64,000 nt of DNA from Pelagomonas calceolata (taxonomy: Eukaryota): NCBI GenBank assembly GCA_918797485.1, contig CAKKNE010000005.1:372001-436000 (forward strand). The letters run 5' to 3'. Below are positions 5,875 to 62,136 of the stretch, in pieces. The notes beneath the pieces were generated by a model. The model made no database searches and was not told the origin of the DNA. It worked only from the letters and a program-made list of their open reading frames with translations. Every line of letters starts with the position of its first letter. The first letter of the stretch is position 1. The position numbers and the translations under genes are program-made.

Positions 5875-8598
5875 TTACCCCTCACCGGAATCCGACGCCT
5901 CGCCGAGCGACGGCGACGAATCAACATCGTCCAGCCCCTGCGAACACTTCTCGACGACCCACTTTCTCAAAGCCAGCTCCTCGGGCGCCTCCCCGACCTC
6001 GCAGTCGTCGTCGCCCCCGAACGCTCGAGGCAAGTCCCGGGGGTCGACGAGCTCCCGCAACGTCGAAGCGTAGTCCGACCTTAACACAGTCACCTTGGCG
6101 CGGACCTGCGGTTCCAGCAAAGGCGACACGATGGACCAGACCACCCCAAAGGCCGCCGGCGCGTTAATCACGATGGTCCGCCACACGCGCTCCGGCGAGT
6201 GCCTGTTCACCGCACCTACCAAGTTAAAGTACTTCAGGCAGCTCCCCCCACAGTCCCCGAGACCCACATTGCGGCAGTCGATGATCTTCAGAAAGTACCC
6301 GCCGGGATCGAGCGGCCTTCGACCAACCTCGTCCACATCATCCAACAAAGTAGCGTAGGTCCAGCACGCGACGAAATGCATATGTTCTACGATATCTTCT
6401 ATGGAAACGCCCTCGTCAATAAGTTGTCGGAACGTAGCATTCGGTCTATCGATGACTTCGTAGGAGCAGAGGTGTCCTTTTCTGTCCCTTTTATGTAAGA
6501 AATGGATATGTCGCCGTTTAATAGCTTCGAAGTGGGGCTGCGGCCTTAGTTGGACCTCCCTCGGATGGTTCCGTTGCCTCCATACCGTAGTTTCGGCCCA
6601 GCGCCGCCGCGCTTCATCTTTATCGCCTCGCACAGCCAACAAGAATCTTCGAGGTACGTCCGCCGGTAGCGGGATGGAGGCCCTTGCACAAGCCTCCCTC
6701 GCTAGTCGCGCGTCCTCGCTCTCCGGCTTGTCTTCTTCTTCATCACTTACGTCGGACTGGCGCCAGCGCCAGTCCACCAAGCGGACGTCGACGCAGCCGC
6801 CCTTGCTCCGCGCGTAGCGTAAAGCTGAACAGGGCTCCTCGTCGTCGACCTCCGCCGCGGCCGCGGCCAACGCGAAGACGATGAATACTAGAAATGCGAG
6901 ACCCAGCAACGACCCGAGCGACGCCTTGAGGTGGTAGGCGCCGTGTTCCTTCACTAACATCAGACTCCTTCCGAGGAAGTAGCGCCGTATCAAATGCACC
7001 AGAAGCAGCACCGACGCCATCGATGCGATCGATTCGGCGGCGGGCCGGCCGACGTAAGGTTCGAGAAGCGACGCGAGGCCGCGCGCGGGCTCCTTTACCA
7101 AATCGGAGGCACTTCGAGCGAGCACAGCGGCCCAGCGCGGCACGGCGGCGCCGTCGTCGTTCTTGGACGCCTCCAGTAGAACAGAAGCGTCGACGGCCAC
7201 CAGCACCTCCAAATTCGAGTCGTCCGTGTCCTCTTGCTCTTCGGTCTCGACCGACGCCCAGAAGGCGCTTCTCGACACTTTTGCCGCGGCGATGGCGTGT
7301 TCCGCCGACGACGGCGCGCCGAGCCCCCTCCTATGGTCGTGGTGGGCTCTTCGCACCAAATCCCCAACATCCAGGTCGACGGCCGCACCGCAGATCCAAT
7401 CTCGCTTTCATCGAGCGACAGTCGACTCGTAACGGCCTTCTCCAGCCGTAGGCGTCCGTCTCCCTTGACAGCAACGTCTCCTTGTTCCTCGCATCCACTA
7501 GGGTAGCTAAACAGAGGTCGTGGCCCCGCGCTCGCGCGTCGAGCCGAGCCACGGCCCGCAGAGCCCGATCGCGCGCGCGAGCCACGGCTCGTAACCACGC
7601 GAGGCACTCCCTTGCGGAAGACGCTCTGAGTTCTACAGTCTTCGACGCATCCAAACCTCCTAAAGCAAAGCACCGATGATGTAAGGGTGGCGCGTCCACC
7701 CCGGCCTCGCCGTGTCTGAGGATAGAGAGGATGTCCGTGACGTGGACGTGGTGCAGTAACCGCCCGTCACTTTCGTTCACGGGGTCGAACACCAGCAAGG
7801 ATAAATGTGTGAGTAACACGTGCGCGGGGACCCACGCGCCGTTCCTTAAACAGTCCAGGCGGCCTCGCCGCGTGACGCCGGGCAGCGACCTGCGTGGACA
7901 TCAAATTTTACGTTGTCTCGCCTCATGAGATCACGTCGCCGCGACGCCATCGCCGCGACGCCATCGCCGCGACGGCGTTACGGCGCCTTCCTCCTGGATC
8001 ACCGCGTCGACCTCCACGCCATCGACGCGACACCTGCTCACCGCTCGACGGAACCAGCGCGGCCACGCCTGGTTGATTTCCACACCGGCAGCGACTGCGG
8101 GTCGCCCAGAGGATACACCCGTCGTTGCGACGTGACCGAATCTCTATTGAAGAGGCCCCTTTGTACAGGAGCTCTATCAGCTGTGGTCCAGGGGCCCTTT
8201 TTGTCGAGCTCGAGGAAACTCCTCACGGCCTTCTGGCAGGCTAGAGGGAGGTCATCCGTCCTTCTTGTCAACAACTGGAGCCACGCGTCCAGCTGTTGGG
8301 ACTGGTCTGAAGCTTGTCTTGGCGTCGGCCGCAAGCCTAATCTTTGACCCCGAATCTGCTTCGGGAAGCGATCCCTCGCCGCATATAAAACACCACCATC
8401 ATCCCGCAACCGCTCGTGCAACCGCCGGCACTGCTCGTAGGTCACGCCCAACGTTCTTTCGGTCGGACCGCTCGACGCCCGGACGACGAACGTCGCGACC
8501 GTGCCGTTGACGGCGTAGCGCTCGACGCGCGCCTCGATGGATGTCGTTTCTTCTTCTTTCGGCGACTGGGGCTCGGCTTCGAGGAAGCGCGCTTCCAT
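5875..8598 (-). CDS. PX-like + PH-like + TM + CRAL-TRIO (Sec14) lipid-binding protein; introner intron 7890-8095 and an unresolved frameshift near 7381
   Basis: Removing 7890-8095 fuses ORF 8038-8598 in frame with ORF 7331-7819; ORF 5875-7359 has CRAL-TRIO motifs 'PERVWRTIVINAPAAFGVVWSIVSPLL', 'DLPRAFGG'. Confidence 0.7.
7890..8087. mobile_element. Introner-type non-autonomous DNA transposon (198 bp)
   Basis: TIRs CTGCGTGGACATCAA (7890-7904) / TTGATTTCCACACCG (8073-8087); perfect 8-bp TSD GCAGCGAC at 7882-7889 and 8088-8095. Confidence 0.92.
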
Positions 8599-8762
8599 CC
8601 GTCTTTGGCAGCTTTGTGGCTGCTCCTGATCTAGCCCCGTGCCGCAGCTTTTCTTCGTCCAGACCGCTTCGTGTGATTGATAAGGTGATGAAACCTGCTC
8701 GCCAGCGTCTGAGGAGCGCTTGCGGCACAGATCTCGGCGCGAAACTGCAAATTCGATGCGTA

Positions 8763-8789
8763 GCTAGCGGTCAGTAAGACACTAGCAAG
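8763..8789 (+). promoter_or_regulatory. Representative copy of the recurrent GCTAGC-N-GTAAGACACTAGC intergenic motif
   Basis: GCTAGCGGTCAGTAAGACACTAGCAAG; near-identical copies at 54053 and 60871, other copies listed in findings. Confidence 0.7.
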
Positions 8790-8987
8790 GCAAGCATTCA
8801 CGGCATACACTTGTCAAAAGCGCTCCCCGTCGCCTTGACATTGTTGATTGTTCGCTTTATGTAAGGTGATCGCGCCAGCCATCTCTCGACGAGAGTACGA
8901 CGCCTGAACTCAATCAATTTGTCTCTTCTCTTCCTGGTAAATATTTGCACCAGCACTTGTTGCTGAGCACACTGAAACGTTATCACC

Positions 8988-11201
8988 ATGCGTCGACGCC
9001 GATCAACGCGCTCCGTCATCAAACTCCTCGCAGCCGCGGCGGTAGCGACGGCATCCATCGTCAGCCTCGTGCGGCCTCGTGCGGCTTTCGACCCGACCGC
9101 GGAATTGCCGCTCTGCGAGGACATCGAGGAGATCGACACGAGGGTGCTCGCCCAGCCGCCAAGGCGAGGTAATGCGCCGGAGCAGCTCATGGACTTCCTC
9201 AGGACGTATAAAAACGAGCACCGCCCGGGCGACGAAGACGACGACGACGACGAAAAGGAGCCGGGCCCGGTGGCGGCAGGATTAGACACGTATGCGGGTG
9301 AGTGGTACTCCCGCGACGCGGGCGGCACGTTCGTGCTCGCGTTCACGGACAACCCGAAGCCCCACCTCGAGGCGATCCGCCGGCGGCGGCCGCCGGAGAC
9401 CGGTGACTGGCCCGTCGACGTCGTTCGGGCCCCCCACACCCACTCAGAGCTCAAGGCCGCCGAGAAGAAGGTCGACAAAATGTTCGAAAAGTTGCGCGGT
9501 CGCCCAAATTTGAAGAGCTATGCCTACGCTTCCGACCCGCAGCGCAGTCGCGTCGAAATCAGCCTGTCAGGATACACCTTCGAAGATATGGCCGCGATGG
9601 CCAACGCGCTCGACGACGAGGCCCACGGAAAGGTCTGTCTCTGGGGGCGCCCGTCGATACGGGTGCCGACGCTTGAGGACCGGTTGCTGGCCCGGTTCGC
9701 TCCGATGGCCGACGCCGTCGACGCCGATTCGAAGCCGGTCGGGGTGTGGCTCCGCAATTCCGACGGCTATGGCGGGAGGCAGGGGTTACGCCTCGCCCTC
9801 CCCAAAGGCCTCAGAACGGTGGAAATGCGCCTCGACAGGACGAACCCGCCCGACCCGGATTCCACCACCCTGCACCTGCTCGTGAGGCAGAGCGGTTGCG
9901 GCAGCGGCAGGAGCGGCGTCGAGCGCATGCCGAAGCCCGAGGTGATCGAGTCCGCCACCGAGATCCGCATCGCCATGGGCGTGATCCCGCCGGATGGCGC
10001 GGTGGCGTGTCCAGGCCACCCGCTCGACCCGATCAAGATTGAACTCGCCGCCCCGATCGGCCGGCGGAAGATCGTCGACGGGCTCATAGTGCCCCCGGAG
10101 CCCCTCGAGTTCATGCGTCTGCGGAGGGGATCGAGGCGTGAGCTCGATGACGCGTCGACTCGCCGCGACGACGCGGTCCGGCGAAGGCGCCTGGCTCAAG
10201 GCGCCACTCCAAAAAGGGGACTCCCTCGACTCCGACCGCATCGGCGCGATGCCGTGACGTCCCCAGGACTGCCGCTCGACCTCTGCCAGGACATTGTTCC
10301 GACCTCATACAGCCATGCTGAGCTCACTGAAGCCCAGCAGAGGGTGAGTTCAATGATGAGGCAGTTCTTCGAGAGGAAAAACGATGATACATTAATGGCC
10401 GGCTGGTATGTAGGGGGGAGCAATCGCGTCCAGATCGATATTACGTGCCCTGGCCACCCCACCGTCGAGGAGATATCCGCAATGGCCGACGCGCTCGACG
10501 ACGAGTTCCACGGAATGGTCTGCGTCGAGGGGCCCCTGTGGGACGGCTCAATCCGGCTGCCGACGGTCGACGACCGGTTCGCTCCGATGGCCGACGCCGG
10601 CGCTAACCCGCTCGTGGAGTGCGACGACGACGAACGCGTCCCGGATTCAAAGTATACCGGCGACTGCGGGGATGCTCAAGAGGTACGCCTCGTCCTCCCC
10701 GACTTCATCGGCGAGGTGGAAATGCAATTCGACCGGCGGAATCCGCCCGACTCGGACTCGACTACGCTGCACCTGCTCGTGACGCAGAAGGCCTGCGCCA
10801 GCGGCAGGAGCGGCGTCGAGCGCATGCTGAAGCCCGAGGTGATCGAGTCCGCCACCGAAATTCGAGTCGCGATGGGCGTGATCGCGGGGTGTGGCGGGAG
10901 GTGTCCAGGCAACCCCTTCGTCCCGATCACGATCAAGCTCGCCGCCCCGATCGGCCAGCGGAAGATCGTCGACGGGCTCTTTTTGCCCCCGAGGCCCCTA
11001 TGGCCCAAGAGCCTTAGAATCGCCCGGCCCTATCGGCGGAATCTCGTTATCTATGCGCCTTGGCGTTCGCGCTGGCGGCTTGCGATGGCGAGGGCGGCGA
11101 TGGCGGTGCGGCGATGGCGACGCGCGAACGCGGCGTGGCACTGGCGCGCGCGAGATACGCCTCCTAAGTCCCCGACACACACGCCACGCCGCGCATCATA
11201 A
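8988..11201 (+). CDS. Secreted/anchored protein with an internal duplication of a bacterial-like Cys-containing domain
   Basis: Hydrophobic N-terminal segment; two copies of 'DSTTLHLLV.Q..C.SGRSGVERM.KPEVIESATEIR.AMGVI...CPG.P..PI.I.LAAPIG.RKIVDG'; possible in-frame intron 10117-10266. Confidence 0.65.
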   Translation: MRRRRSTRSVIKLLAAAAVATASIVSLVRPRAAFDPTAELPLCEDIEEIDTRVLAQPPRRGNAPEQLMDFLRTYKNEHRPGDEDDDDDEKEPGPVAAGLDTYAGEWYSRDAGGTFVLAFTDNPKPHLEAIRRRRPPETGDWPVDVVRAPHTHSELKAAEKKVDKMFEKLRGRPNLKSYAYASDPQRSRVEISLSGYTFEDMAAMANALDDEAHGKVCLWGRPSIRVPTLEDRLLARFAPMADAVDADSKPVGVWLRNSDGYGGRQGLRLALPKGLRTVEMRLDRTNPPDPDSTTLHLLVRQSGCGSGRSGVERMPKPEVIESATEIRIAMGVIPPDGAVACPGHPLDPIKIELAAPIGRRKIVDGLIVPPEPLEFMRLRRGSRRELDDASTRRDDAVRRRRLAQGATPKRGLPRLRPHRRDAVTSPGLPLDLCQDIVPTSYSHAELTEAQQRVSSMMRQFFERKNDDTLMAGWYVGGSNRVQIDITCPGHPTVEEISAMADALDDEFHGMVCVEGPLWDGSIRLPTVDDRFAPMADAGANPLVECDDDERVPDSKYTGDCGDAQEVRLVLPDFIGEVEMQFDRRNPPDSDSTTLHLLVTQKACASGRSGVERMLKPEVIESATEIRVAMGVIAGCGGRCPGNPFVPITIKLAAPIGQRKIVDGLFLPPRPLWPKSLRIARPYRRNLVIYAPWRSRWRLAMARAAMAVRRWRRANAAWHWRARDTPPKSPTHTPRRAS

Positions 11202-11345
11202 AAAAACAGTAACCGCCATTGGGCGGTGAGTCACGGCGGTCTTGTCGATGTGGGGGGCGCGAGGGAAGGGGTGGCGGCGCGCGCGACTGGCTCGCGCACG
11301 AAATGCCGGGAGGGGGTATGGGGAGATTCCTGATTTTTTTTCTGT

Positions 11346-12087
11346 TCACCGGCGGCCGTACATGGCGATGTGCGCATCAAAAAATTCGATGACGTGCTTC
11401 AGCTGCCACTGGCACTTCTTGAAATCACGCATCGCCTCCAAGGCGCCGGCCTCGTCGCCGGCTAACCGCCTCTTGACCGCTTCTTGCCGATTGACGCAGA
11501 TGGCCCGCCGCAGGTCGTCGCGCAGGTCGTAGGGTCGGGCGCGTCTATGTACATCCACCAACGCGCCGAGCTCGCTCCAGACGTTTCTGTCCAGAGCGGC
11601 CACGAGCGCGTCGAACAAGCCTCGCCGGACGAACTCGTCCGTCGCGTCCGCGAGCTCCGAGCACCGGCCCAATTCCACGGGGCCCAGCGCGCGCCGCTCT
11701 TCCAGGCGCACCAGCAGGGCATCGAGGGCCTCCGTCGCCGGGCGGCGGGCTCGACGCTGGCACGGACGTGTTGCTGTCGTCCGAGACCGTCGGTAACGTC
11801 TCGTCGGGCGCGGCGCCCGGCGCCGCGCGCCGCATGTCGTCCGCGCTCACAACTCTTCGCATGTCGTCGGCGCCGCGCAGCCGTCGCCCGTGCTCCTTGC
11901 CCTTGGGCGAGCCGTCGAACCGGACACCGGTAGAACCAACGTTCTGGCCCTCCTCCAGATTATTGGAGGACGACACGCGCCGCAGCTTGCGCGTGGACTC
12001 CTCCTCGAGCAGCTCGTCGAGCGCGCTCGACGAGAGCGACACGCGCTTGAGGTAGGCGGCCGCGAGGTGGACGTCGAGCTCGCTCAT
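11346..12087 (-). CDS. Hypothetical protein split by an apparent frameshift near 11740
   Basis: ORF 11545-12087 looks coding up to 'PASSPP'; a shifted frame continues 'PATEALDALLVRLEERR...' to the stop at 11346. Confidence 0.45.
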
Positions 12088-12699
12088 GGTGTTATGTGCA
12101 GGCGGCGGGGCTATTCTATGTTCAAATATGTACCGCTGCCGCGTCGCGTCCCAAAAATCGCTCGTTGATCCTCAGAGCTGATTTTTATTGATTTCTACTG
12201 CGGCGGCGCGTCTCCGCGCGCGGCAATTGCACAGGAGTACCGCTGGGATACTGCGAATGCCCTGATGAGGCGCGCCAGCTATGACAGCCCCGCAGGATGG
12301 AGAACCAAAAACGCGCATCCGCCGCCGGCCAGAGCATCGGTGGCATTGGCCTACGTAGCACGGAATTTGCAGCCTCAAGCCGCGCGAGCGAACCAGCGCT
12401 CTTAGGGGCCCTGAGGGCCTCCTAGACGCGCCGCGGGGCCAGAGCCAAAGACCAGGGAGAGCCCCATCTTCCAAATTCAAACCGCGCGTCACGGCCCCAA
12501 CGAGAGGACGTCCCGCAGCGCTCCGGCGCTCCCGGGACGCCCCGTCGCCGCGCGGGCGCTGCGCCAAGTCCAAGCCTGGTGGCCTGCAATATTTTAGACA
12601 GCCGCACCGAGCGCGCGCTTGGAGCCGCAGGCTTCGGCCTCTGTCGCGCAAACGCGTCCTCGTGTGACTGGTGGGCACGCCGCGGCGCGCGGTCGGGGC

Positions 12700-14166
12700 A
12701 TGGGCGCGCATTCACGAAGTTTGCTGCTGCTGGTGGCTGCCCCGCTGGCCGTGCAGGCGGCGGGCGGCGTGCGCGCGGCCGCGGGGCTGCGCACGGCGGC
12801 GCACCGAGCGGCCAGAGACGTCGGGGCAGCGAAACGGGCGGGAAACCCGGCAGTGGCCGCCGGCGCGACGACGGCGCCCGCCGCGCGAGAGGCAGCGGCG
12901 ACGCCGACGCCGACGCAGCGCGTCCTCGACGCGATGCGTTTGTCGCTGCAAAGGTGGGATAAAGTAGAGACGAAGCAAGGGGCCCAGGACTACGTCCGCG
13001 ACATATTGAGCCCCGCGAAGCGCGGCGCGTTAGGCCGCATTCTCATCTTAAATGGCCGCGTCTTCGCGAACGAAGAAGGCGGCAAGGTCCAACAACATTT
13101 AACCATGGTCTCACGAGCCGTCCGCGAAAGGCATTCCAAAGTAAAAAACGTGGCCTACCTCCACAACTCGGAAGCGTCCGGGAGCTGCCTCGAGAATAAA
13201 AAAGGCGAGCTTTTGCCAACCACGCTCATCGCAAAAAAGTACTCCTCGAAGGAATGTGGCGTGTTAGTGCCGAACCCCTACTTCGGCGACCTGGACCATT
13301 GGTCAAATGTGGCGCAGCTGTTGGAGGACGCGTCGCGGAAGCACCCCTACTGGAAGCGCGATCCCAGAGCCTTCTGGCGCGGCCATATTAGATGGAGGAA
13401 CAAGGACTGCGACCACGAGTCCGGGAATATTGCCCGTTTCTTGGGGACGCTGTTGACCTTGCGCCACCCGGACCAATTTGACGTGAAGGTGCGGCATCTG
13501 GAGGCAAGAAAGCGCATCTGGACGAACGCGACGGCCCTCCATGCGACAAAATGCAAGGACGGCGCCGCAAAGTACCCCTTTCGTATTGATGGCCTAGACG
13601 GGCTCGTGCAGCGCCTCTCGGAGGCCCAGGACGTGAGTTGGGTCAATCCCGTCGACTACGCGCGTTATAAAATCCTGGCGCACTTCCCCGGCGGCACGAC
13701 GGGGTCCTACAGTCGGAACCTCAACCACCTCTGGGCCACCGGCTCGACCGTCATGATCTGGGACCACCCGGCCCAGGAGCACTACTATGCTGGTTTAGAA
13801 GAAGGTCGAACGCACCTCGTCTTCAACGCGACGACCGCCGTCGAGGTCGCGAAACAGATCACGGACAACTACCGCCTCGCGCGCCGCCTCCGGGAAGGCG
13901 CCGCGGACGTGCAGCGGGAGTTGGTCTGCGCCGACTGCCTGCACGGCTTTTTGCTGGAGACGCTGAAAGCGTTCCGGGCCAAAACGCGACGTGAGAGCCA
14001 TCACCCACCGTCGCAAAAGTTGTTCCGGTGGACGCGGCGGCGACATTCAGTAGACCACCGTCCCTCGTGTCCAGGTCGATCGGTGCTTCTCCCAAAATTT
14101 CTCCTGTCTCGTAGTTCACGACCGCAACTAATGGTCTTGCGTCATACACACCTACCAACGCTATGA
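12700..14166 (+). CDS. Glycosyltransferase family 90 (CAP10/KDELC-like); native C-terminus apparently lost at ~13983
   Basis: Signal peptide; 'W.KRDPRAFWRG', 'DYARYKILAHFPGGTTGSYSRNLNHLWATGS', 'EHYYAGL..GRTH'. Confidence 0.75.
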   Translation: MGAHSRSLLLLVAAPLAVQAAGGVRAAAGLRTAAHRAARDVGAAKRAGNPAVAAGATTAPAAREAAATPTPTQRVLDAMRLSLQRWDKVETKQGAQDYVRDILSPAKRGALGRILILNGRVFANEEGGKVQQHLTMVSRAVRERHSKVKNVAYLHNSEASGSCLENKKGELLPTTLIAKKYSSKECGVLVPNPYFGDLDHWSNVAQLLEDASRKHPYWKRDPRAFWRGHIRWRNKDCDHESGNIARFLGTLLTLRHPDQFDVKVRHLEARKRIWTNATALHATKCKDGAAKYPFRIDGLDGLVQRLSEAQDVSWVNPVDYARYKILAHFPGGTTGSYSRNLNHLWATGSTVMIWDHPAQEHYYAGLEEGRTHLVFNATTAVEVAKQITDNYRLARRLREGAADVQRELVCADCLHGFLLETLKAFRAKTRRESHHPPSQKLFRWTRRRHSVDHRPSCPGRSVLLPKFLLSRSSRPQLMVLRHTHLPTL

Positions 14167-15355
14167 GCGACCCTGCACCTAGGAACGCTATCGACGACAC
14201 TGTCTCAAATAATCCTTTGGCGACGGTTTTGCCTTCTTGACCGATGGACCAGACCCGCAATCCGTCGACGCCGTGCGCGGCACAAATAGGTTTGGTATTA
14301 TGAGCACAGACGCAGGTGACGCCCGGTACCGTTTCTAGGCGTTGTGTTGTCGTATCTAGTCGTCGCTCCGCAACGAAGCAGCCCGTGCCCACTACTATCG
14401 TCCGGCACGGCCGCGACCAGGCCACCAATTGACCATTCCCGTCGAAGCCGTGCATCGCTAGGGGAGAAGGCGCGCCCAGTGACGTCGTCAAATCAGGTAG
14501 AGGAGCCTTCCAGTCGTCGGCGTGGAGCTTGAGGGGAGGCGATGCCGGTGGCGAAGGCCTTGAAGGCAGGCAGGCGACAGGTTCATCTTCACAAGAGGAA
14601 AACATGTCGCGGCCGAACGCCACGAAGTCGCCCCGGTCGCAGTCGCGCCAGAGCTCCGCCAGATCTTGATCTGAAGGTGGAGGCAGGCCGACGGCGATAG
14701 CTAAGCCTCGAAGAGCCACGCACCACTGGGCCAGCGGTAAGCGTCTCTGGGTCTGTTTCGACCCGCGCTCACAAAGCGCGCGGCACCTCCTTTTTAACAA
14801 TGATCGGGCCGCGGCGTCGACTTCATTAGCATGCGCCATTTCCCCGATACGGTCGCGCTCGACGCGGCGCAGCTCCTCGGCTAATAGTGACCGCAACTTT
14901 GACGACGAGGCATCAGTCGGAGGTGCCACGTTCGCGCCCTGCAAGGGGTCCACGTACAGCCCGTTGTCCTCCGGCGTCCTTACCTCGACCTGCTTGGCCT
15001 TCGGCGGCGTCACGACGTGCTGTGGTTCGCCAGTCGCCGCTCTCGCCACGCACTGCGCGAAGGTGTCGATGGACAGCTTGCCGTGCTTCTGCTGGGCCGT
15101 CAATTGGTCGGCGAAGGCCTCCAGCGAATCACGCTCGACGCCGACGAGCCAGGTCCGCCGCAGCATCTCGGCGAGAGCCTTCGACGACAAAAAGCCGTCC
15201 TTGTCGGCGGCGGGCTTCAGGACGCGGCGCAGCTCCCTTGTGATCTTGGTGGCCGCCATGGAGCCGACCTTTTGCTCGATCTTCTCCGTGAGGAGAGACA
15301 TGACTTTGTCCGCGTCGGGGCGGCCCGGTGAGGCGGCGCATGCTGTAAACTCCAT
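13859..15355 (-). CDS. EF-hand-like + WD40 (EML-like) protein, C-terminally truncated at ~13978
   Basis: EF-like segments 'DKDGFLS', 'HGKLSIDTF'; beta-propeller-like strands ending 'FATVGDGSHVAFW', after which the frame reads the antisense of the GT90 gene. Confidence 0.55.
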   Translation of the reverse strand: MEFTACAASPGRPDADKVMSLLTEKIEQKVGSMAATKITRELRRVLKPAADKDGFLSSKALAEMLRRTWLVGVERDSLEAFADQLTAQQKHGKLSIDTFAQCVARAATGEPQHVVTPPKAKQVEVRTPEDNGLYVDPLQGANVAPPTDASSSKLRSLLAEELRRVERDRIGEMAHANEVDAAARSLLKRRCRALCERGSKQTQRRLPLAQWCVALRGLAIAVGLPPPSDQDLAELWRDCDRGDFVAFGRDMFSSCEDEPVACLPSRPSPPASPPLKLHADDWKAPLPDLTTSLGAPSPLAMHGFDGNGQLVAWSRPCRTIVVGTGCFVAERRLDTTTQRLETVPGVTCVCAHNTKPICAAHGVDGLRVWSIGQEGKTVAKGLFETVSSIAFLGAGSLIALVGVYDARPLVAVVNYETGEILGEAPIDLDTRDGGLLNVAAASTGTTFATVGDGSHVAFWPGTLSASPAKSRAGSRRRPTPAARPRRLPGGGARGGSCP

Positions 15356-15773
15356 TGTCGATGGCGTACGAGCGGTCCTTCGCCGCAGTGACGCTCGCCG
15401 GCGGATGGCTGCGCCGGCCTGCGCGCGCGTGAGTCGATTCCGCTGCGGGGGGCAGCAGTTCGACTGCGCAGTGCAATTTTAGTTTGAAAGTTTGCTGGTT
15501 CGAAGCTGAAGACACACTAGGGCTCAAGTCGAACGAGGGCTGCCGCGGGTCAAGCAGTCCGTCGCGCGCGCGCGAGGACGTCTCGGGCTCCCCTGCTTCA
15601 ATTTTCACGAGTCGGGCAGAGAGGCTAGAGAGGCTGGGCAGGGCAGGGCATAGTGGCAGGGTCCGGCTGAGTAGTATCGATAGCTGCTGCCGCTTGTGCT
15701 GCTTGAGGCGACCGCTGCCAACGCATAACAATTGCGTAGCACCTCACGACCACTTACGCGCTGCCCATCGACC

Positions 15774-17163
15774 ATGGCAGTGAAGAAGACCAAAGTGGTC
15801 CTCAAGGTCGAACTGCCCGCGGGCAAGCTGGGCCTGACTGCCGTCGGGAGCCCGCCCGCGGTCGGCGCGGTCAGGACCGACTCGCCGGTCGTGGGGCGGG
15901 TCGTGCCCGGGGACGTCATCCTCTCGCTCACCCGTCCGGGCTTGGGCGACGTCGACACGACGAACCTGGATGGCCAGGCGGTGATGGACACGCTCATTAA
16001 GTTCGCCAAGCGGGAAGGCCGCAGTCTGACGGTCGAGAAACACGGTATGTACAGGGTCGGCGTCCCGCCTGGGCCGCTTGGAGTCTCGTTCGTAGATGGC
16101 ACGTGCACCGTGCACGCGGTAAAACCCACGTCGCCGCTGCTGAGCACGACGAAGGAGGGCGACACGCTTTTGTCCGTGAATGGCCAGCCGGTGACGCCGA
16201 CGACCATCCTCGACGTCACCAAGGCGGCGGACGATGGAACCAGCGAGTGCAAGCTCGTCTTCCTGGGCACTGGCTGCGAGATTGTGGAGGACATAGTGGT
16301 GGCGGAGGGCCCGGCGCTCACGAACGAGACGCTGCGAGACTGGGTGGGGCGCTGGTGCGGCGGCGTGCGTTGGAATTTAAAGCGGCACCTTCGCCGATTT
16401 GATCCGCATCTCCCGCAACTTGGTAACCGCGAGGGCCTGCCGCCCATATCAAAGTGGAATACGAGCCGCGTCACGGACATGAGCCGTCTCTTCATGGGCA
16501 AATCTAAGTTTAACGACGACATCAGCGCGTGGGGCTGCGTGGAAATCAACCAATGTGTCGGGTGCACCCGACAATTCTTCACTAAGTCATTTCTCGGCGA
16601 TGGCGCTGCCGTCCTGGCTTGGTCGAGCGGCGAGGAACCGGCATCGCCACGCCATCGAGCAGGCGTCGCGTCGATGGCGTGGAGGACGACGCGACGATTC
16701 AGCACGAACGCGCCGTAAAATTTTGATTTCCACACAGGCGTGGGATACCTCCAATGTCACAGATATGAGCTACATGTTCCACGGCGCCAAGTCGTTCAAC
16801 CAGCCGCTGAACGACTGGTGCGTCGACAATGTCACGAATATGCGAGGGATGTTCAGCTGTGTCCGTTACAAAGATGATGGTTATGGTGGTTATTACGTAC
16901 GGGTAATAAGGGGATCGTCGTTCAACCAGCCGCTGAACGACTGGCGGGTCGACAACGTCACGGATATGCGCGAGATGTTCGCCTACGCCTCATCGTTCAA
17001 CCAGCCGCTGAACGACTGGCGGGTCGACAAGGTCACGAATATGGGCGGGATGTTCATTAACGCCTCGGCGTTCAACCAGCCGCTGAACGACTGGCGGGTC
17101 GACAATTTTACGCCCTCACCAACTCCCGGCGGGTGCTGGGTGCTGTGCTGCCCCATCTCGTGA
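15774..17163 (+). CDS. PDZ-like + DUF285 (BspA-like) repeat protein, interrupted by introner intron 16527-16737
   Basis: 'GKLGL', 'GPLGVSF' PDZ-like motifs; 'ISKWNTSRVTDMSRLF', '(S)FNQPLNDWRVDNVTNM..MF' repeats; splicing restores FNDDISAWDTSNV; ends CCPIS. Confidence 0.85.
16535..16737. mobile_element. Introner-type non-autonomous DNA transposon (203 bp)
   Basis: TIRs CTGCGTGGAAATCAA (16535-16549) / TTGATTTCCACACAG (16723-16737), 14/15 match; TSD GCGTGGGG / GCGTGGGA (7/8). Confidence 0.93.
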
Positions 17164-17342
17164 ACTCGCTCGCTTTTTGCCTCGTGCTGTACACGCACGC
17201 ACTTCCAAAGTACTCTCTCTCGCACTTCCACGACTGCACATAGCTGCCGCGGCGGCCCACTTCTGTACACACCATGCACATACACTCCTCTCCTTATCCA
17301 TACTATCTGTAAATATATTTCTAGTTGTCGCTGTGGTTCCAC

Positions 17343-38395: not shown

Positions 38396-38771
38396 TGCTT
38401 GCGCGTCGACGGCGCGCACGCTAAGGAGAGATTTTGCTGCTGTGCAGAGTTGAGGCCTTTAGACGTCCTGCACGCAATTCTTTCCGCTCCTCGCAGAAGA
38501 CGCACAGTGTAGATAAATTAGCGACCACCGCTGGTGCATGTATAGTCCCCAGCGCGCCGAAACCAAACTCGGCGGTGGAAGCGAGCTAGCGTCGGTAAAG
38601 GCGCTAGCGAGCGACACATAAAACGCTGTGCAGCCAAAGCTGCGCCACACGCGCAGAAGTATAACATTGAGCCAGTTTTTCGTGCCCCCATACCACTCCT
38701 TGGCCCAACTATCCAGCGTTTCCGCGCTCTTATCGCCGCACCAGGCTCCCACAAGGCGCTGCACGGCAACC

Positions 38772-53889: not shown

Positions 53890-54357
53890 CGATCGGTCCG
53901 TAGTGGCTTTGCGCAGGTGGCTTTATCGATGCGAGTTGGGCCCAATCGCTGCGCGAGACGACTTGTGCTATAGCCTAAGTAGTTCCAAATGCACCAGCGC
54001 TATGATGCACCGCACAGCTTGCCTTTTTTTGTGGGGCCTCGAGGCGCTGCGAGCTAGCGTCCAGTAAGACACTAGCAAGCGAAAGCCAAGCACAGTCCTG
54101 GCTTGCCCACGGCTAGCGTAAGCATAATATCCACCGGTAATCAAGCAAAGACAGACCATCGATACACGTGAAAAACCGTACGCGTCTCCTTGACTATTGA
54201 TCGACCGGGACAGAGATTTCCTGAAATCAGCCTGCTGGTGGTTACGACAAAAGTCACGCCGCGGCGTGCTTGCGTGGCGTGAGGCCTGCGTCGACGTCGC
54301 CTACATAAAGCGCCGCCGCCGCGACGTCGCATAAAAGCGCCGCCGCCGCCGCGCGAG

Positions 54358-55476
54358 ATGATGCATGAGGCGCCCGCGACGCCGCGCCGCCGGAGCTCGT
54401 CGGACGAGGACGCCTTCGCCGACGCGAATAAATATGATGACCTCGAGGAGGCCCAGGCGCTCTTGGCCGCCGAGAGCGGCGAAAAGCCGAAGCCCAAGGC
54501 GCCGCCGCGGAATTTATTTGGATTCTACCTCCAGTACTTCGCCGTGGGAGTGGTGTATGGCGGCCTCCCGTCGACGATCTACGGCTTCTTTTTGGGCTAT
54601 TTGAATGTGGAAGGTTATGTCTACGCTACCTGCGCGACAATCGTAGGATTGCCCTGGTCCTTCAAGTTCATCTTCGGCGCCATCAACGACTGCTTTCCAA
54701 TTTTAGGATATAGACGAAAACCGTACATGGTGATAGGCTGGTGCCTTTGTGCTTTAGCCCTTATTAGGTTGGCAACAATGCCGTTACCGGAGCCCTACTG
54801 GTGCGTCAACGCCGAGGACACGGCCTACGTGAGGGAAGAAAATGGCTTAGCCGCGGCCGCGTGCAACGCGGACGCAAAAAACATGGGTGGACAATTCGCG
54901 TTCTGGATGATGCTCGCGTCGCTGGGGTACTGCGTGGCCGACGTCGCGGCGGACGGGCTCATGGTCGCGTTGGCGAGGGCCGAGCCTGTCGCTTCGCGAG
55001 GCACGACGCAGACCTCGGTCTACATGGTTAGAACGTTCGGCAACGTCGTCGCCGTGTTAACGGTGGGCCTGTGCATGAACTCGTGGCGCTACAACGGCTC
55101 GTTTTCTTGGGGTCTATCGTGCTCGTGCTGAATCGTCGCGTCGTCCTCCACGCCATCGACGCGACTCCTGCTCGACGGCGTGGCGGTGTGAATTCCTCAC
55201 CGCTCGACCGAGCCAGGACGGCCGCGTCATCGCCGAGAAACGACTTAGTGAAGAATTGTCGGGTGCACCCGACGCACTGGTTGATTTCTACACAGGTCGC
55301 AACGGGCGGAAGCGCAGGCTAGGAAGAAATCATGGGACAAGTCCGACGCCTACGCGTGGACGTCGGTCGTCCTCATCAGCGTGGGGCTGGTCTACTCGGT
55401 GACGATCAACTTCCTCGCGATGTTTCCCTCGACGATGTGCCTGCGCATCGCGGGCGGGAACGGGTGCGGGGGGTAA
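54358..55476 (+). pseudogene. BT1/folate-biopterin-family transporter with its central part missing
   Basis: N-half 'LPWSFKFIFGAINDCFPILGYRRKPYMVIGW', 'ADVAADG', 'EP..SRG.TQ' stops at 55131 inside a truncated introner; a C-terminal exon 55296-55476 reads 'SQRAEAQ...FPSTMCLRIAGGNGCGG*'. Confidence 0.65.
55123..55295. mobile_element. 5'-truncated copy of the 16535 introner, in opposite orientation
   Basis: About 157/173 identity (manual count) to the reverse complement of the 16535 element; right TIR TTGATTTCTACACAG present, left TIR and TSD absent. Confidence 0.9.
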
Positions 55477-55777
55477 CGATAACTGTGCTAATCTTATAAG
55501 AGCTCCCCGGCGGCTCTCGCGGGGGGTGAGGGTTATTTTTTGCGCGGCGTACCGGCGTTCGACGACGAGTTCGTCCCCGCGCCCTGCAAAAGCGGCCTTT
55601 GGCTAGTGTGTTACAGGCTGCTAGCTCGATCCCGGGGAAGCGGGATTAAGCTGCAAATTCTCTACGACTGCACTTCACGCAACTTTCGCAGCACACTGCG
55701 GTCCCGGCGCTCTCGGAGCGGGGGTCACTGCGGTGACAGATTCTCTACGACTGCGGGTCAGCACGCCTGCAAGCAGC

Positions 55778-58006
55778 ATGGGTAAGAAACATAGAACCAA
55801 GAAGGATCCGTGCCCCAAGGGCTGCGGCGGGAGATTTGCGGCCGGTCCCATGGTAGCACACCTGAAGAGCTGCGGCCGCAACACGCCGCCGCCGAGCCAG
55901 ACCTACACGCTCTCGCCGGACGAAGATGTCTGGCCGAACTCCGAGATTAGATGCGTGCTCTGCGGGGGCCAGGCCCCGATGATCGCGCACCCTGTTACCA
56001 AAAAGCTCTTTGCCAGCTGCGCCAAGTGGTACGACCCGCGGCACCGAGACCGCGACGCCGCGCGGCGGGCGAGAAACGACAGCAAAGCCGCGCGGAGCGC
56101 CTTGGGCGGCCACTCCATGATTCAGGCGCGCGGCGACCAGATCATTGAGTGGCGCGCGCGGATCGAATCGTTGAACGGCTCGCGGCTAGACGAGCTGGTC
56201 GCGTTTACGTCAGAGAACCAGGACTGGCGCACCGACGACAACCGCTCCGTCCTCTTAGAAGCGCTGGCGCGGCGCGTCGAGATCACCGACAAGGAAGGCT
56301 ACTACTCGCGGCTCGAGACGCGACTGGGCGAGGTAGACCCGGCGGACGTGCCGAAGCTGTGGGGCGGCACGAACTACCGCGAGGTCTGCCAGAGCGTCCA
56401 GACGCTGGTGCGGTGCCCGCGCGGCGACCCCATGTTCGGCCGCCTCCCGCCGCTCACCACTTTATTGACATTCGGCACTGTAGAGTCCAGCCTGCTCGCG
56501 CTCGTCGACAAGGAGGTGCGGCGGATCAGGGCGTCCATGCGGAAGGCCGCGTCGGGTGCAGCGTCGCGACACGTTGTCCGTGAAAGATCACGTCTATCGA
56601 CGAACGTGCGCGGCCTCCTCATCTTCGACGTCAACCGGAGGTCCGCCGGCGTGCAGACGACGTCGGCGCTCGCGCAGCGGCGGCGCTGGCGCGACGGGCC
56701 GAACGGCTTCGGATTGCGCCTCAAGGCGGAAGGCGTGGGCCTCCTCGCGCAGTGCCTCCCGCGGCAGTTGCGGGTTGCAAGCCCTAGGGCCGTCAAAAAC
56801 CTCGACTGCGACTTCGGCGGCGTGGCCAACAACCAGCCCATCTACCAGGGGCCCAACGTCAAGTTGGACGGCGAGGGCCTCGTGGGCGACGCCACGACGC
56901 GCGAGTACTCCCGACCGGCCAATGTAGGCATTGCGCGCGTGCTCCAGACTTTGAGCAGCGGCGACCACGTCGTCTTGCAGGTCTGCTGTTTCGGCGAGGA
57001 GGTCGTCGAGTACCCGACCGACGGTGGGACCTGGCGCGACGATTTTGGGCGGGCGGCGGTCCACTTCCTAGCGACGTACGACGCGGGCGTCTACGACAAG
57101 CACGTGGCGCCGAATCCCAGAGAGTGGGCGCGCAACTGGACGCGCCACCTCCTCGAGGAGGACGGCTGCGGCGGCGTTATCTACGGCCGGCCCTGCAGCT
57201 TAGTCGTCAACGGCGAGACCTACGGCCGGTGCCCCTACACGGACCCGCTCTTCTGCCTCCTCGCAAATTCTTTAGATAGAACCGTGTGCCGCGTCGCATT
57301 GGACTTGGACTACCGCTGGGACCGCGACCAGCCGCGGGACGACACGTCCGTTCTACCGGCGTGGGCCGGCAACCGGGACTGGCGCGAGGCGCTCCTGCGG
57401 GCGGCGACGCCGCACGCTGACGACGCCCTGCGCATCGCCGAAGTCGAGATCCTGCCGCGCGTCGCGGCCGCGTTCGCGGACGAGGACGGCGACCCCTGTG
57501 CGGCGCTGCGCGAGGGCTACGCCGCCGTGGCGCTCGGCGCCGAGACGATGGGCCCGGGCCCCTATTTAGCTGGCGTCCGCCAGCGCTACGTCGATACCGT
57601 CGCGCCGACGGTCCTCGAGGAGCTCGGCCGCGCGCGACGCTTCGTGATCGAGACGTACAACGTCCACGACCTCGACGCCGGGCCCGTCAGCACGCGCTAC
57701 CGTTTCGAGCCGCGGACCGGGCTCGACGACCTCCTGGGCGCGCCGGACACCTCGCGGCTGCCGCCGGTGCCGAGGGCGTCGTCGCCCGGGCGCGGCGGCG
57801 TGGACGCGCTGACGAGCGCCCTCGCGGCGTCGCCCAGCAACTTCCAGGCGTCGTCGGACGACGACGACGCGGCGCTGCCCGAGGTCCCCAAGTCGCGCAC
57901 GCGCCGCCGCCGCCGGGCGCGCCGCCGCCGCCCGCCGGACGGCTCGACGCAGCCGGACTCGACGGCTCGGTCGCTGGGCGCGGGCGGCTTGCCGCCGGTC
58001 CTCTAG
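55778..58006 (+). CDS. Large hypothetical protein with N-terminal Zn-binding motifs
   Basis: ~740-aa uninterrupted frame; 'CPKGCG...HLKSC' and 'CVLCGG...FASCAKW'. Confidence 0.6.
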   Translation: MGKKHRTKKDPCPKGCGGRFAAGPMVAHLKSCGRNTPPPSQTYTLSPDEDVWPNSEIRCVLCGGQAPMIAHPVTKKLFASCAKWYDPRHRDRDAARRARNDSKAARSALGGHSMIQARGDQIIEWRARIESLNGSRLDELVAFTSENQDWRTDDNRSVLLEALARRVEITDKEGYYSRLETRLGEVDPADVPKLWGGTNYREVCQSVQTLVRCPRGDPMFGRLPPLTTLLTFGTVESSLLALVDKEVRRIRASMRKAASGAASRHVVRERSRLSTNVRGLLIFDVNRRSAGVQTTSALAQRRRWRDGPNGFGLRLKAEGVGLLAQCLPRQLRVASPRAVKNLDCDFGGVANNQPIYQGPNVKLDGEGLVGDATTREYSRPANVGIARVLQTLSSGDHVVLQVCCFGEEVVEYPTDGGTWRDDFGRAAVHFLATYDAGVYDKHVAPNPREWARNWTRHLLEEDGCGGVIYGRPCSLVVNGETYGRCPYTDPLFCLLANSLDRTVCRVALDLDYRWDRDQPRDDTSVLPAWAGNRDWREALLRAATPHADDALRIAEVEILPRVAAAFADEDGDPCAALREGYAAVALGAETMGPGPYLAGVRQRYVDTVAPTVLEELGRARRFVIETYNVHDLDAGPVSTRYRFEPRTGLDDLLGAPDTSRLPPVPRASSPGRGGVDALTSALAASPSNFQASSDDDDAALPEVPKSRTRRRRRARRRRPPDGSTQPDSTARSLGAGGLPPVL

Positions 58007-58364
58007 TCGCTGGCGCGGCACCCTTCCCCTTTCCCGCTTCGCAGAGTCTGTGCAACTCAGCGTCGTGTCGACGGCATATCTGTTGAATTAATGATATATG
58101 TCGTTACTTTAGTTGTCCCGCCCCACGTGTCGTCCCGCCCCGCCGGCAAACGACAGAATCAACAAATTGTGGTAGGGCCAGAAGAAGGACCCCGTCGACC
58201 TCACGCAGGACGCAAGCCATCTCCAACCAACTGTTCGGGCTCTGGCGGCCGTCGTTATCGGACTCGTCGAACTACATCGATGATACCCCTGAATTTCGGA
58301 GGACGCCGACGCCGACTTCGCGCCGCCGAAGAAGAAGCGCCGCCGCGGCGCCGCGAACAAGAAG

Positions 58365-60614: not shown

Positions 60615-61098
60615 CTTTCGACTGCTTGTGGACGTGCGCTATCGCGTCGATTGCGTATCGCTCGCTGCCTTGGGCGGGTTGCTCTTTACCTCTGAGCTAC
60701 AGTGTTGCTAGCGACGACTCTAGAGTCGAAAGCGGCTGCAGCAAATGCTGCCGAACTAGCTCGCAGCTTTCCGATAGCAGCACAGCAGCAGGCGTTCAGT
60801 TGCGACTGCTGTCCAGCGCTTCGTCTCTATTGCGTGCGCCTGCAGGCGCAAACCTGGAGTAAAAAATCGAGCTAGCGGCATGTAAGACACTAGCAAGTAC
60901 TAAAAATCGGAAGCTCGATCCGCTGCAGAGAGATTGCCAGAGGAACAGGGGCAGCCTGACCTCAGAGTGAGGGAAACGCTGCCCGTCTGCGCAGCACACA
61001 TCCAAAAACGCAAGCGCAGGCAGCTCCAGGGCAGCCTCTGGCCAGCCAGAGCGAGGCCGCCCGCCAGGGCAGCGGTCCGCGGTCCATGAGCAGCAATC

Positions 61099-62136
61099 AT
61101 GATGGGCTTCATAGAGCCAGAGCAGGCAGAGCAAGCGCCGGCGCCGATGAGGATGGAGCAGGAGCAAGCGGCGGCGGCGGAGAGCGAGGCGGCGCCGCGG
61201 GAAGGAGAAGTCGTCCCGGAGGGGACGGCGGAAGCAGAAGCTGGCGGTATCGTTCTCGCAGAGGAGCTAGAACGCCAGGGCCCGGCGCTCACGAACGAGA
61301 CGCTGCGAGACTGGGTGAAGCGCTGGTGCGACGGCTTCCACGAGGGCCTGCCGCCGATCTCGACGTGGAATACAAGCAAGGTCACGGACATGTCGTGGTT
61401 GTTTGCTGTACGGCAGGGTTGGATGAAAGGCGACTCGTACTATGATTCCTGCGTGCCTGAGACTGCGTCCTTCAACGACGACATCAGCGCGTGGGATACC
61501 TCTAATGTGACGAATATGAGCTGGATGTTCCACAGAGCCTCGTCGTTCAACCAGCCGCTGAGCGACTGGCGGGTCGACAATGTGACGAATATGAGCGGCA
61601 TGTTCGAATGCGCCTCGTCGTTCAACCAACCGCTGAACGACTGGCGGGTCGACAACGTCACGGATATGCGCGAGATGTTCGAATGCGCCTCGTCGTTCAA
61701 CCAGCCGCTGAACGAATGGCGGGTCGACAACGTCACGGATATGCAACGGATGTTCCGCTACGCCTCGTCGTTCAATCAGCCGCTGAACGACTGGCGGGTC
61801 GACAACGTCACGAATATGTACGAGATGTTCGAGGGCGCCTCGTCGTTCAACCAAGCGCTAAACGACTGGCGGGTCGACAAGGTCACTAATATGTGCGACA
61901 TGTTCCGCGACGCCTCGGCCTTCAACCAGCCGCTGAACGACTGGCGGGTCGACAAGGTCACGAATATGCACGCGATGTTCAAAGGTGCCAAGTCGTTCAA
62001 CCAGCCGCTGAACGACTGGCGGGTCAACGACGTCACGATTGTGACCGGGATATTCAAGGGCTCGGCCTTAAAACCCTGGCAGGACGTTGGTGACTCGAAA
62101 CTTAGGTCACAGAAGCCATGCTGCGCCGTCTCGTGA
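61099..62136 (+). CDS. DUF285 (BspA-like) repeat protein, paralog of the 15774 gene
   Basis: Tandem 25-aa repeats 'ASSFNQPLNDWRVDNVT.M..MF'; ends CCAVS. Confidence 0.88.
   Translation: MMGFIEPEQAEQAPAPMRMEQEQAAAAESEAAPREGEVVPEGTAEAEAGGIVLAEELERQGPALTNETLRDWVKRWCDGFHEGLPPISTWNTSKVTDMSWLFAVRQGWMKGDSYYDSCVPETASFNDDISAWDTSNVTNMSWMFHRASSFNQPLSDWRVDNVTNMSGMFECASSFNQPLNDWRVDNVTDMREMFECASSFNQPLNEWRVDNVTDMQRMFRYASSFNQPLNDWRVDNVTNMYEMFEGASSFNQALNDWRVDKVTNMCDMFRDASAFNQPLNDWRVDKVTNMHAMFKGAKSFNQPLNDWRVNDVTIVTGIFKGSALKPWQDVGDSKLRSQKPCCAVS
61492..62040 (+). repeat. Coding tandem repeat, ~75-bp unit, ~7 copies
   Basis: Repeated 'TCGTTCAACCAGCCGCTGAACGACTGGCGGGTCGACAAYGTCACG.ATATG'. Confidence 0.9.

Follow-up and report, generated by a model that had tools for sequence, protein, structure and literature searches.

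Introners are one of the main sources proposed for new spliceosomal introns, and those of Aureococcus anophagefferens are reportedly the subject of Huff, Zilberman and Roy 2016, Nature 538:533. The stretch of Pelagomonas calceolata DNA analysed here, a window of 64,000 nucleotides, includes two repeats of about 200 bp, E1 and E2, each located within a gene, and raises the question of whether both are introns made by the insertion of a transposable element. Our confident reading is that E1 and E2 are non-coding copies of an inverted-repeat element, spliced as GY-AG introns (GY being GT or GC) together with one copy of an 8-base target duplication. Their insertion was likely the work of a cut-and-paste transposase that is encoded elsewhere and probably belongs to the hAT kind.

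E1 and E2 are spliced out of their host transcripts

The features of the locus are listed in Table 1. At E1, 94 raw poly(A) reads on the strand of the host gene skip nucleotides 7890-8095, with 27, 15, 4 and 48 reads in the four runs of one sample. Once this segment is taken out the minus-strand gene has a single open frame, while the unspliced frame meets stops. The spliced product is identical to the public protein P0130 and aligns through the junction with eight relatives. The 8-bp direct repeat is exact, reading GCAGCGAC at both 7882-7889 and 8088-8095. E1 is present in genomic DNA, as contigs of DNA run X3 span both borders by 46-75 nt and a contig of run X14 spans one. Among the relatives, P0119, P0127 and P0128 are uninterrupted at the E1 site and P0131 runs into family-like sequence, calls that may be genomic or spliced. 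The best match of E1 to other copies is about 60 nt long, with 87-91% identity. The host had been described as a PX/PH gene; the PH domain stands as a weak match (E 0.0013, below the curated cut-off), the PX label is not confirmed, exon 1 matching no Pfam family at E≤0.1, and a CRAL-TRIO domain is found further along the same gene.

At E2, 54 raw poly(A) reads on the host-gene strand skip nucleotides 16527-16737 (12, 16, 16 and 10 in the four runs, one sample). The plus-strand gene is one open frame without this segment, and its unspliced frame meets stops. E2's own letter at 16620 is found in at most 8 sense-strand reads, compared with the 54 junction reads; some retention of E2, or pre-mRNA, exists. 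Another 42 reads connect 16532/16533 with 16915, with sides of 21-22 nt and unknown intervening letters, and may come from DUF285 paralogs. A GT donor at 16529 was rejected, as it would shift the frame and its joint is absent from the RNA joints listed. The two E2 duplication copies, GCGTGGGG and GCGTGGGA, agree at seven of eight positions, and since the equivalent position in the DUF285 paralog of the window, which lacks E2, reads GCGTGGGA, the changed letter is that of the intronic copy. To its 14 nearest full-length relatives E2 shows 88-96% identity, and to a third copy, E3, 91%. Other copies contribute loose ends at 16535 and at 16738-16740, where the flanks are mixed (agreement 0.42-0.56), and the summed X3 contig depth, about 800 times higher at E2 than in its flanks, is no measure of copy number.

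The preliminary description had derived the donors from the target duplications (GT at 8095, GC at 16527) and the acceptors from the inverted repeats (CAG at 7890 and 16737), and had proposed RNA-seq at 7890/8095 and 16527/16737 as a check; exactly these two joints are seen in the reads. The 15-bp inverted repeats at the termini (TIRs) and 8-bp target site duplications (TSDs) that it gave are present in both elements, save that the E2 duplication is not exact and that the donor-side end of E1 reads CGG. Its span, 7882..16744, starts correctly and ends one nucleotide short of the E2 duplication, which reaches 16745.

Table 1. Introner copies, introns, target duplications and host genes in the window.
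Feature	Coordinates	Strand	Remarks
E1 host gene, PH and CRAL-TRIO protein	5875..8598	-	frameshift in the window at 7379 compared with reads and relatives
E1 exonic 8-bp target duplication copy	7882..7889	-	start of exon 2
E1 introner copy, 198 nt	7890..8087	-	internally deleted, diverged family member; nhmmer E 2.5e-11
E1 acceptor-side terminal inverted repeat	7890..7904	-	CAG at end (7890)
E1 donor-side terminal inverted repeat	8073..8087	-	CGG in place of CTG
E1 intronic target duplication copy	8088..8095	-	first two minus-strand bases are the GT donor (8095)
Intron 1, 206 nt, GT-AG, phase 2	7890..8095	-	94 junction reads
E2 host gene, PDZ-like and DUF285 repeat protein	15774..17163	+	
E2 intronic target duplication copy, GCGTGGGG	16527..16534	+	GC donor at 16527; final base changed
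E2 full-length introner copy, 203 nt	16535..16737	+	nhmmer E 8.7e-38
E2 exonic target duplication copy, GCGTGGGA	16738..16745	+	same as the paralog's empty site
Intron 2, 211 nt, GC-AG, phase 0	16527..16737	+	54 junction reads
E3, third, truncated copy	55123..55295	+	one inverted end only; orientation to host gene opposite to E1 and E2
Uninterrupted equivalent of the E2 site, GCGTGGGA	61489..61496	+	in DUF285 paralog 61090-62136

A third copy and other matches in the window

The earlier list of two elements was incomplete, having overlooked E3 (55123-55295), which sits where a BT1 transporter gene has lost about 270 codons. The 15-nt terminal motif has six matches in the window at up to two mismatches, compared with 0.24 expected, and none of 100 shuffles reaches six. 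Four of these matches fall at the ends of E1 and E2, a fifth at that of E3 (55281-55295), and the sixth (9113) lies outside any element; partial motifs at 1426 and 12188 were rejected as ends of the family. A search of the window against Rfam gave no matches, as did one of viral contigs with the terminal 21-mer. Folding of the two introns is modest (z -2.16 for E1 and -2.23 for E2), as expected from their inverted ends.

The family in marine metagenomes

The window includes three copies, and many sequence-similar copies are found at unrelated positions elsewhere, the family set comprising 98 distinct insertion sites among 121 marine-metagenome loci. In DNA runs X3, X9 and X14 at 90% likeness, other copies swamp the junctions and presence or absence is only partly readable; among the X9 pieces listed, none spans E1. 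Copies range from 54 to 377 nt, with a modal full length of 203 nt. The 8-bp duplication is exact at 43 of the 98 sites and has one mismatch at 19 and two at 13, the target duplication being already altered at 55. Duplications of 7, 9, 10, 11 and 12 bp are exact at 1, 0, 0, 0 and 0 sites respectively, and the length is 8 bp in both orientations of the element.

At all 86 sites with a duplication at three mismatches or fewer, one orientation offers a GY donor (background 33%, p 3e-42). The donor is in the forward orientation at 37, in the reverse at 32 and in both at 17, so that there is no orientation bias (37 vs 32, p 0.63); the 69 single-orientation donors consist of 56 GT and 13 GC. A codon model assigns the coding strand as predicted in 46 of 48 flanks upstream of the element and in 44 of 48 downstream of it. 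With the same model, excision of the element plus one duplication leaves the frame continuous at all 44 sites where both flanks agree, in both orientation classes; the exact restoration of the frame claimed for E1 and E2 is found at both elements. The terminal AG has been lost from none of 37 acceptor-side ends and from 5 of 32 donor-side ends (p 0.018). Among the small points that the family count adds are that no intact copy lacks a usable donor and that only the acceptor-side AG is kept.

How the introns may have been made

In the mechanism that we propose, a transposase would bind the 15-bp inverted ends and make an 8-nt staggered cut, the repair of which would duplicate the target. As both ends carry CTG inward, a CAG stands at the downstream end in either orientation. 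Where GT or GC opens the target on the sense strand, the duplication copy upstream serves as the donor, a step seen at E1 and E2 and supported by the rest of the family; the element is then removed with that copy, and the original 8 bases remain with the protein unchanged. Selection would probably remove insertions that have no GY on the sense strand, which may explain why the surviving copies are almost all working introns. The interior later decays by deletion, with the acceptor AG retained, a step supported by the pattern of AG losses.

A pure selection model in which non-coding insertions are neutral predicts 28-41% of non-GY copies, compared with none of the 86 observed, so that insertions in non-coding DNA must be eliminated as well, degrade rapidly or be avoided. 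This deficit, together with the sense-strand coding context at 46 of 48 sites, is what would be expected if the transposase itself aimed at sense-strand GY targets in transcribed coding DNA, intron creation being a targeting trait and not mainly the result of a selection filter. We consider this unlikely. A symmetric preference for GY half-sites would make sites with a GY on each strand more frequent, yet 17 such sites were observed and 16.9 are expected under a sense-strand filter alone; symmetric targeting was rejected on this count, and the data fit the filter better. Furthermore, three of 13 inspected single-ended matches (L067, L099 and L110) have no GY and a lost or decayed far end, as expected if copies that are not introns simply decay and so fall outside the criteria by which sites were chosen for this analysis.

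The preliminary description had called the family recently active. This needs softening, as the 88-96% identity among copies, the internal deletion of E1 and the altered duplications at 55 of 98 sites fit a past burst of which E1 and E2 would be aged copies. It is quite unlikely that a candidate transposase still moves the family, its ends (CTG in, CAG out) acting as acceptors in both orientations and its insertion being steered into transcribed coding DNA. If this were true, the presence of the E1 intron would vary among wild Pelagomonas populations, E3 would mark a gene that cleavage at an element end had destroyed, and this culturable alga would offer a direct view of how introns are gained and at what cost.

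Spread by an RNA route, in which the excised intron is reverse-spliced and reverse-transcribed and the flanking repeats are a by-product, is very improbable. Such a route is proposed for fungal introners in passages of 10.1101/2022.06.06.494994 and would suit the location of nearly all copies at sense-compatible coding positions, but it is already largely refuted by the occurrence of both orientations with respect to transcription (37 vs 32, p 0.63). In addition, the donor is not borne by the element and differs from site to site, and both the 15-bp inverted ends and the site-specific duplication, with its fixed length of 8 bp, are marks of a DNA transposon. The probability that E1 and E2 disrupt pseudogenes as exonic or UTR insertions, or are repeats that arose by chance in GC-rich DNA, is negligible: loose TIR-plus-TSD patterns are common here (110 window candidates compared with 19-31 in five shuffles, a scan that we rejected as not discriminating) and a broken gene does house E3, but the RNA junction reads refute this for both elements, the terminal motif they have in common is far above chance, and eight relatives align across the spliced E1 junction.

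Transposase and superfamily

No transposase family of Pfam was found among the 105 window ORFs of at least 185 amino acids, which together with copy lengths of 54-377 nt agrees with the earlier view of the family as non-autonomous. No usable Atlas match was obtained for the window ORFs 55778-58003 and 8976-11198, and the ORFs beside the single-ended metagenome copies L026, L067 and L071 include no evident transposase, as judged by reading and not by Pfam. Metagenome matches without a far end within 400 nt number 27; among the 13 inspected, five have a degenerate far end and a duplication, and none is a long copy with a second end. The copies are short, non-coding and numerous, with TIRs and a TSD, as is characteristic of MITEs. 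A typical hAT terminus is CAG or TAG, and the 5′ terminus of this family, CTG, is unlike it. On the other hand, the 8-bp TSD and 15-bp TIR agree with the 8-bp TSDs and 10-25 bp TIRs given for hAT elements in PMC3942097, the relevant passages of which describe hAT-superfamily MITEs with the same features as non-autonomous deletion derivatives.

Comparison with known introners

The making of introns by this mechanism is already known for this algal group, and the locus is a real and well supported instance of it. That the mechanism had been described for pelagophytes, as the preliminary description held, is borne out by published work (10.1101/2021.10.25.465678; 10.1101/2020.10.14.339549; PMC9481584; PMC12130899). 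For P. calceolata, 956 putative introner elements are reported, with a conserved TIR, an intron-length peak near 210 bp, GT or GC donors and an AG acceptor (10.1101/2021.10.25.465678; PMC9481584, Supplementary Note 3). The present introns of 206 and 211 nt resemble them in length, donors, acceptor and TIR; TSDs and the source of the donor are not mentioned in those passages. A table of PMC12130899 (pnas.2414761122.sd07.xlsx) lists a P. calceolata family, fam2, of 340 copies of 202 bp with a TIR of 13, assigned to TIR DNA / hAT by Repbase match, with 281 GT and 42 GC donors, an AG acceptor and the label "co-opt 5′ carry 3′". Species and geometry are the same here (203-nt modal length, 15-bp TIR, 56 GT and 13 GC of 69), and the fam2 row gives no TSD length, which in our family is 8 bp in both orientations. 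By its description the E1/E2 family is likely fam2, and fam1, fam3 and fam39, listed in the same table, may be portions of that family. The terminal 11-mer had no matches in the searched supplements of published introner work.

In the dinoflagellate Polarella glacialis, classes 6, 8 and 10 of introner-like elements have an 8-nt cut site that begins with the donor, and either orientation makes introns, according to passages of 10.1101/2020.10.14.339549. Donors there are GHN6, including GA, and one orientation is favoured, unlike the present family, in which donors are GT or GC only and no bias is found (p 0.63). The introners of A. anophagefferens carry one splice site and take the other from the TSD, in either orientation, with TIRs and direct repeats of constant length (10.1101/2020.10.14.339549 and PMC7789003, in the passages concerned). 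As far as descriptions of two different genera can be likened, E1 and E2 are of this type, with a TIR-borne acceptor, a TSD-derived donor, an unchanged mRNA and, by the codon model, a family in both orientations. The locus can be considered a clean, read-validated example of an introner in an abundant ocean alga, one that leaves the published picture unchanged.

Splicing of E1 and E2

Four raw poly(A) runs from one sample (X21-X24, 6-12% of each used), placed on 7300-17200 at 98% likeness, contained reads for both splice junctions predicted in the preliminary description (7890/8095 and 16527/16737) in every run. At E1, 206 nt (7890-8095) were skipped with CT..AC ends at cut +9 in 27, 15, 4 and 48 reads (X21-X24), the first mate lying on the plus strand in all; at E2, the joint of 16526 to 16738 skipped 211 nt with GC..AG ends in 12, 16, 16 and 10 reads, the first mate lying on the minus strand in all. 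Only these two of the 14 joints listed had splice-type ends. Excision of 7890-8095 and of 16527-16737 unites two reading frames in each host gene, and without splicing both frames meet stops within or past the element. E1 and E2 are real and are spliced as first predicted.

The picture is not wholly clean. The letter private to E2 at 16620 was carried by at most 8 sense reads, which points to some retention or pre-mRNA. Another 42 reads, probably from a paralog, connect 16532/16533 with 16915; their sides are short and the letters in between are unknown. In DNA, both E1 borders were crossed by contigs of run X3 and one by a contig of run X14, and mixed-flank loose ends accumulated at 16535 and 16738-16740. 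The summed X3 contig depth, which is no copy number, was 489,073 at 16607 versus ~570-630 on the flanks, which roughly suggests copies in the hundreds. Poly(A) reads of other family copies pass in thousands, on both strands, from the element (16535-16737) into mixed flanks (2257 loose reads before 16535 in X21), so some copies genome-wide are unspliced or located in UTRs.

The target duplications and shared terminal inverted repeats described earlier were borne out: the flanking 8-bp repeat is identical at E1 and matches at 7/8 positions at E2, and the window contains 6 occurrences of the 15-nt terminal motif (≤2 mismatches) versus 0.24 expected. E1 and E2 are homologous by sequence comparison within the window; on the plus strand they point in opposite directions, so that both face the same way with respect to the genes that host them. 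Generic searching by inverted ends plus duplications did not discriminate in this GC-rich DNA; the claim rests on the shared terminal motif and the splicing and family tests.

Features of the window
Feature	Coordinates	Remarks
E1	7890-8087	introner in minus-strand PH + CRAL-TRIO gene
E2	16535-16737	introner in plus-strand PDZ-like + DUF285 gene
E3	55123-55295	third copy; matches E2 positions 1-173 at 91% identity
DUF285 paralog	61090-62136	
Broken BT1 region	54283-58296	
793-aa ORF	55625-58006	no match in Pfam or Atlas
741-aa ORF	8976-11201	no match in Pfam or Atlas
30-nt motif	8760-8789, 38582-38611, 54050-54079, 60868-60897	closely upstream of four long ORFs
Overlapping convergent ORFs	12598-15478	RNA depth on both strands over ~12900-15500

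Host genes and neighboring features

The E2 host has weak PDZ matches and DUF285 repeats, one unit of which is split by the intron; in the DUF285 paralog the 8-base site is uninterrupted and identical to the exonic copy of the E2 duplication. The PX domain formerly assigned to the E1 host was not found, the gene having a weak PH match and extending into CRAL-TRIO. All 8 relatives found cross the E1 junction without a break, and the spliced product is identical over 353/353 residues to a protein named as Pelagomonas calceolata (P0130), which identifies the species; the E1 intron is thus already in a public gene model. The relatives are 836-aa PH and CRAL-TRIO proteins; the window product and P0130 end at 353 aa. 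RNA reads carry two additional bases at 7379 (23/30, 26/28, 31/34 and 36/41), as does an X3 DNA contig, likely reflecting an assembly error or a strain-specific frameshift.

The 30-nt motif is likely a promoter element; the E1-host RNA ends at 8723, ~40 nt from its first copy, where DNA depth is raised. The 741-aa ORF has an internal duplication spaced ~895 nt and is nearly devoid of RNA depth. At 11055-11238 and 11738-12520 the window differs in clusters from DNA runs X3 and X9 and from X21-X24, and a loose end of 17-20 nt occurs at 11238 (>100 reads per run); another allele or strain, at the 3' end of a highly expressed gene, is the likely source.

E3 lies within the BT1 transporter gene; it carries a single inverted end, and a second duplication is absent. 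Residues 259-524 of a relative (P0001), ~270 codons, are absent there, and a 28-codon piece of them (474-501) matches 58213-58296. Judging from sequence, a deletion probably removed the far end of E3 and ~800 coding bases. The 793-aa ORF lies between the gene and the detached piece.

The family in metagenome contigs

A 21-nt terminal pattern, which fixes one element end by construction, was found in at least 123 stretches (~2300 estimated) of metagenome contigs that may include taxa other than P. calceolata, and had no match in viral contigs. Among the matches listed (126 from 121 loci), the far end lay within 400 nt in 99, giving 98 distinct sites, and was lacking within that distance in 27. 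The 8-bp duplication was exact at 43 of these 98 sites, with one mismatch at 19 and two at 13; no other duplication length fits. We kept the 86 sites with at most 3 mismatches; all 12 left out had GY (a GT or GC donor) or RC in at least one duplication copy. Several loci hold two copies <1 kb apart (L040 at 889-1503, L044/L045, L013 and L025).

A donor in one orientation was present at 86/86 kept sites among those listed, versus a background of 33% (forward 37, reverse 32, both 17). A codon model, trained on genes of the window, was applied to 150 nt of each flank at the 48 unambiguous sites listed; the best frame was on the predicted strand in 46/48 upstream and 44/48 downstream flanks. It was continuous in all 44 sites whose flanks agreed, 39 of which had no stop over 300 nt. 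The far-end AG was lost at 0/37 acceptor ends and 5/32 donor ends; E1 shows the same donor-end loss.

Transposase targeting could also place GY at all copies, and among the matches listed 0/86 copies lacked it versus 28-41% predicted if non-coding insertions were neutral. Nevertheless, we regard targeting as improbable: sites with GY on both strands show no excess over a sense-strand filter (17 observed versus 16.9 predicted), and GY is missing from 3 of the 13 single-ended matches that were inspected, in each of which the far end has decayed. A symmetric target preference is rejected on the same both-strand count, which gives no sign of it. Non-intronic copies have more probably been purged, or decay out of the far-end and duplication filter.

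Age and relation to known introners

The suggestion of recent activity holds in part: a past burst is supported, E2 sharing 88-96% identity with the 14 full-length relatives closest to it among the matches listed; present activity is not. E1 is 87-91% identical to the family over ~60 nt, and listed copies range from 54 to 377 nt, exactly 203 nt in 13/98. In P0131, a protein from a different contig, translation at the E1 site enters family-like yet distinct sequence, so that, from these sequences, the insertion there seems to have been in place long enough to diverge. No element interrupts the site in P0119, P0127 and P0128 (contigs of 1.7-11.5 kb), which may represent empty alleles or spliced products.

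No transposase was found by Pfam among the 105 window ORFs of at least 185 aa, in the window's two long orphan ORFs or, by inspection, adjoining three single-ended metagenome copies. The 8-bp duplication and short ends are compatible with hAT elements, of which both are described as marks (PMC3942097).

The mechanism had been presented as known, and the literature agrees: in Aureococcus anophagefferens one splice site is described as carried and the other recruited, in either orientation (10.1101/2020.10.14.339549), within a wider introner context (10.1101/2022.06.06.494994, PMC9860276, PMC11282704, PMC7789003). For P. calceolata, 956 putative introners with GT/GC donors, AG acceptors, terminal inverted repeats and a length peak of 210 bp are reported (10.1101/2021.10.25.465678; PMC9481584), and 11 families are catalogued (PMC12130899). 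E1 and E2 therefore belong to a known system in a species with introners already catalogued, and by its table description fam2 of that catalogue matches their family in length, splice sites and geometry.
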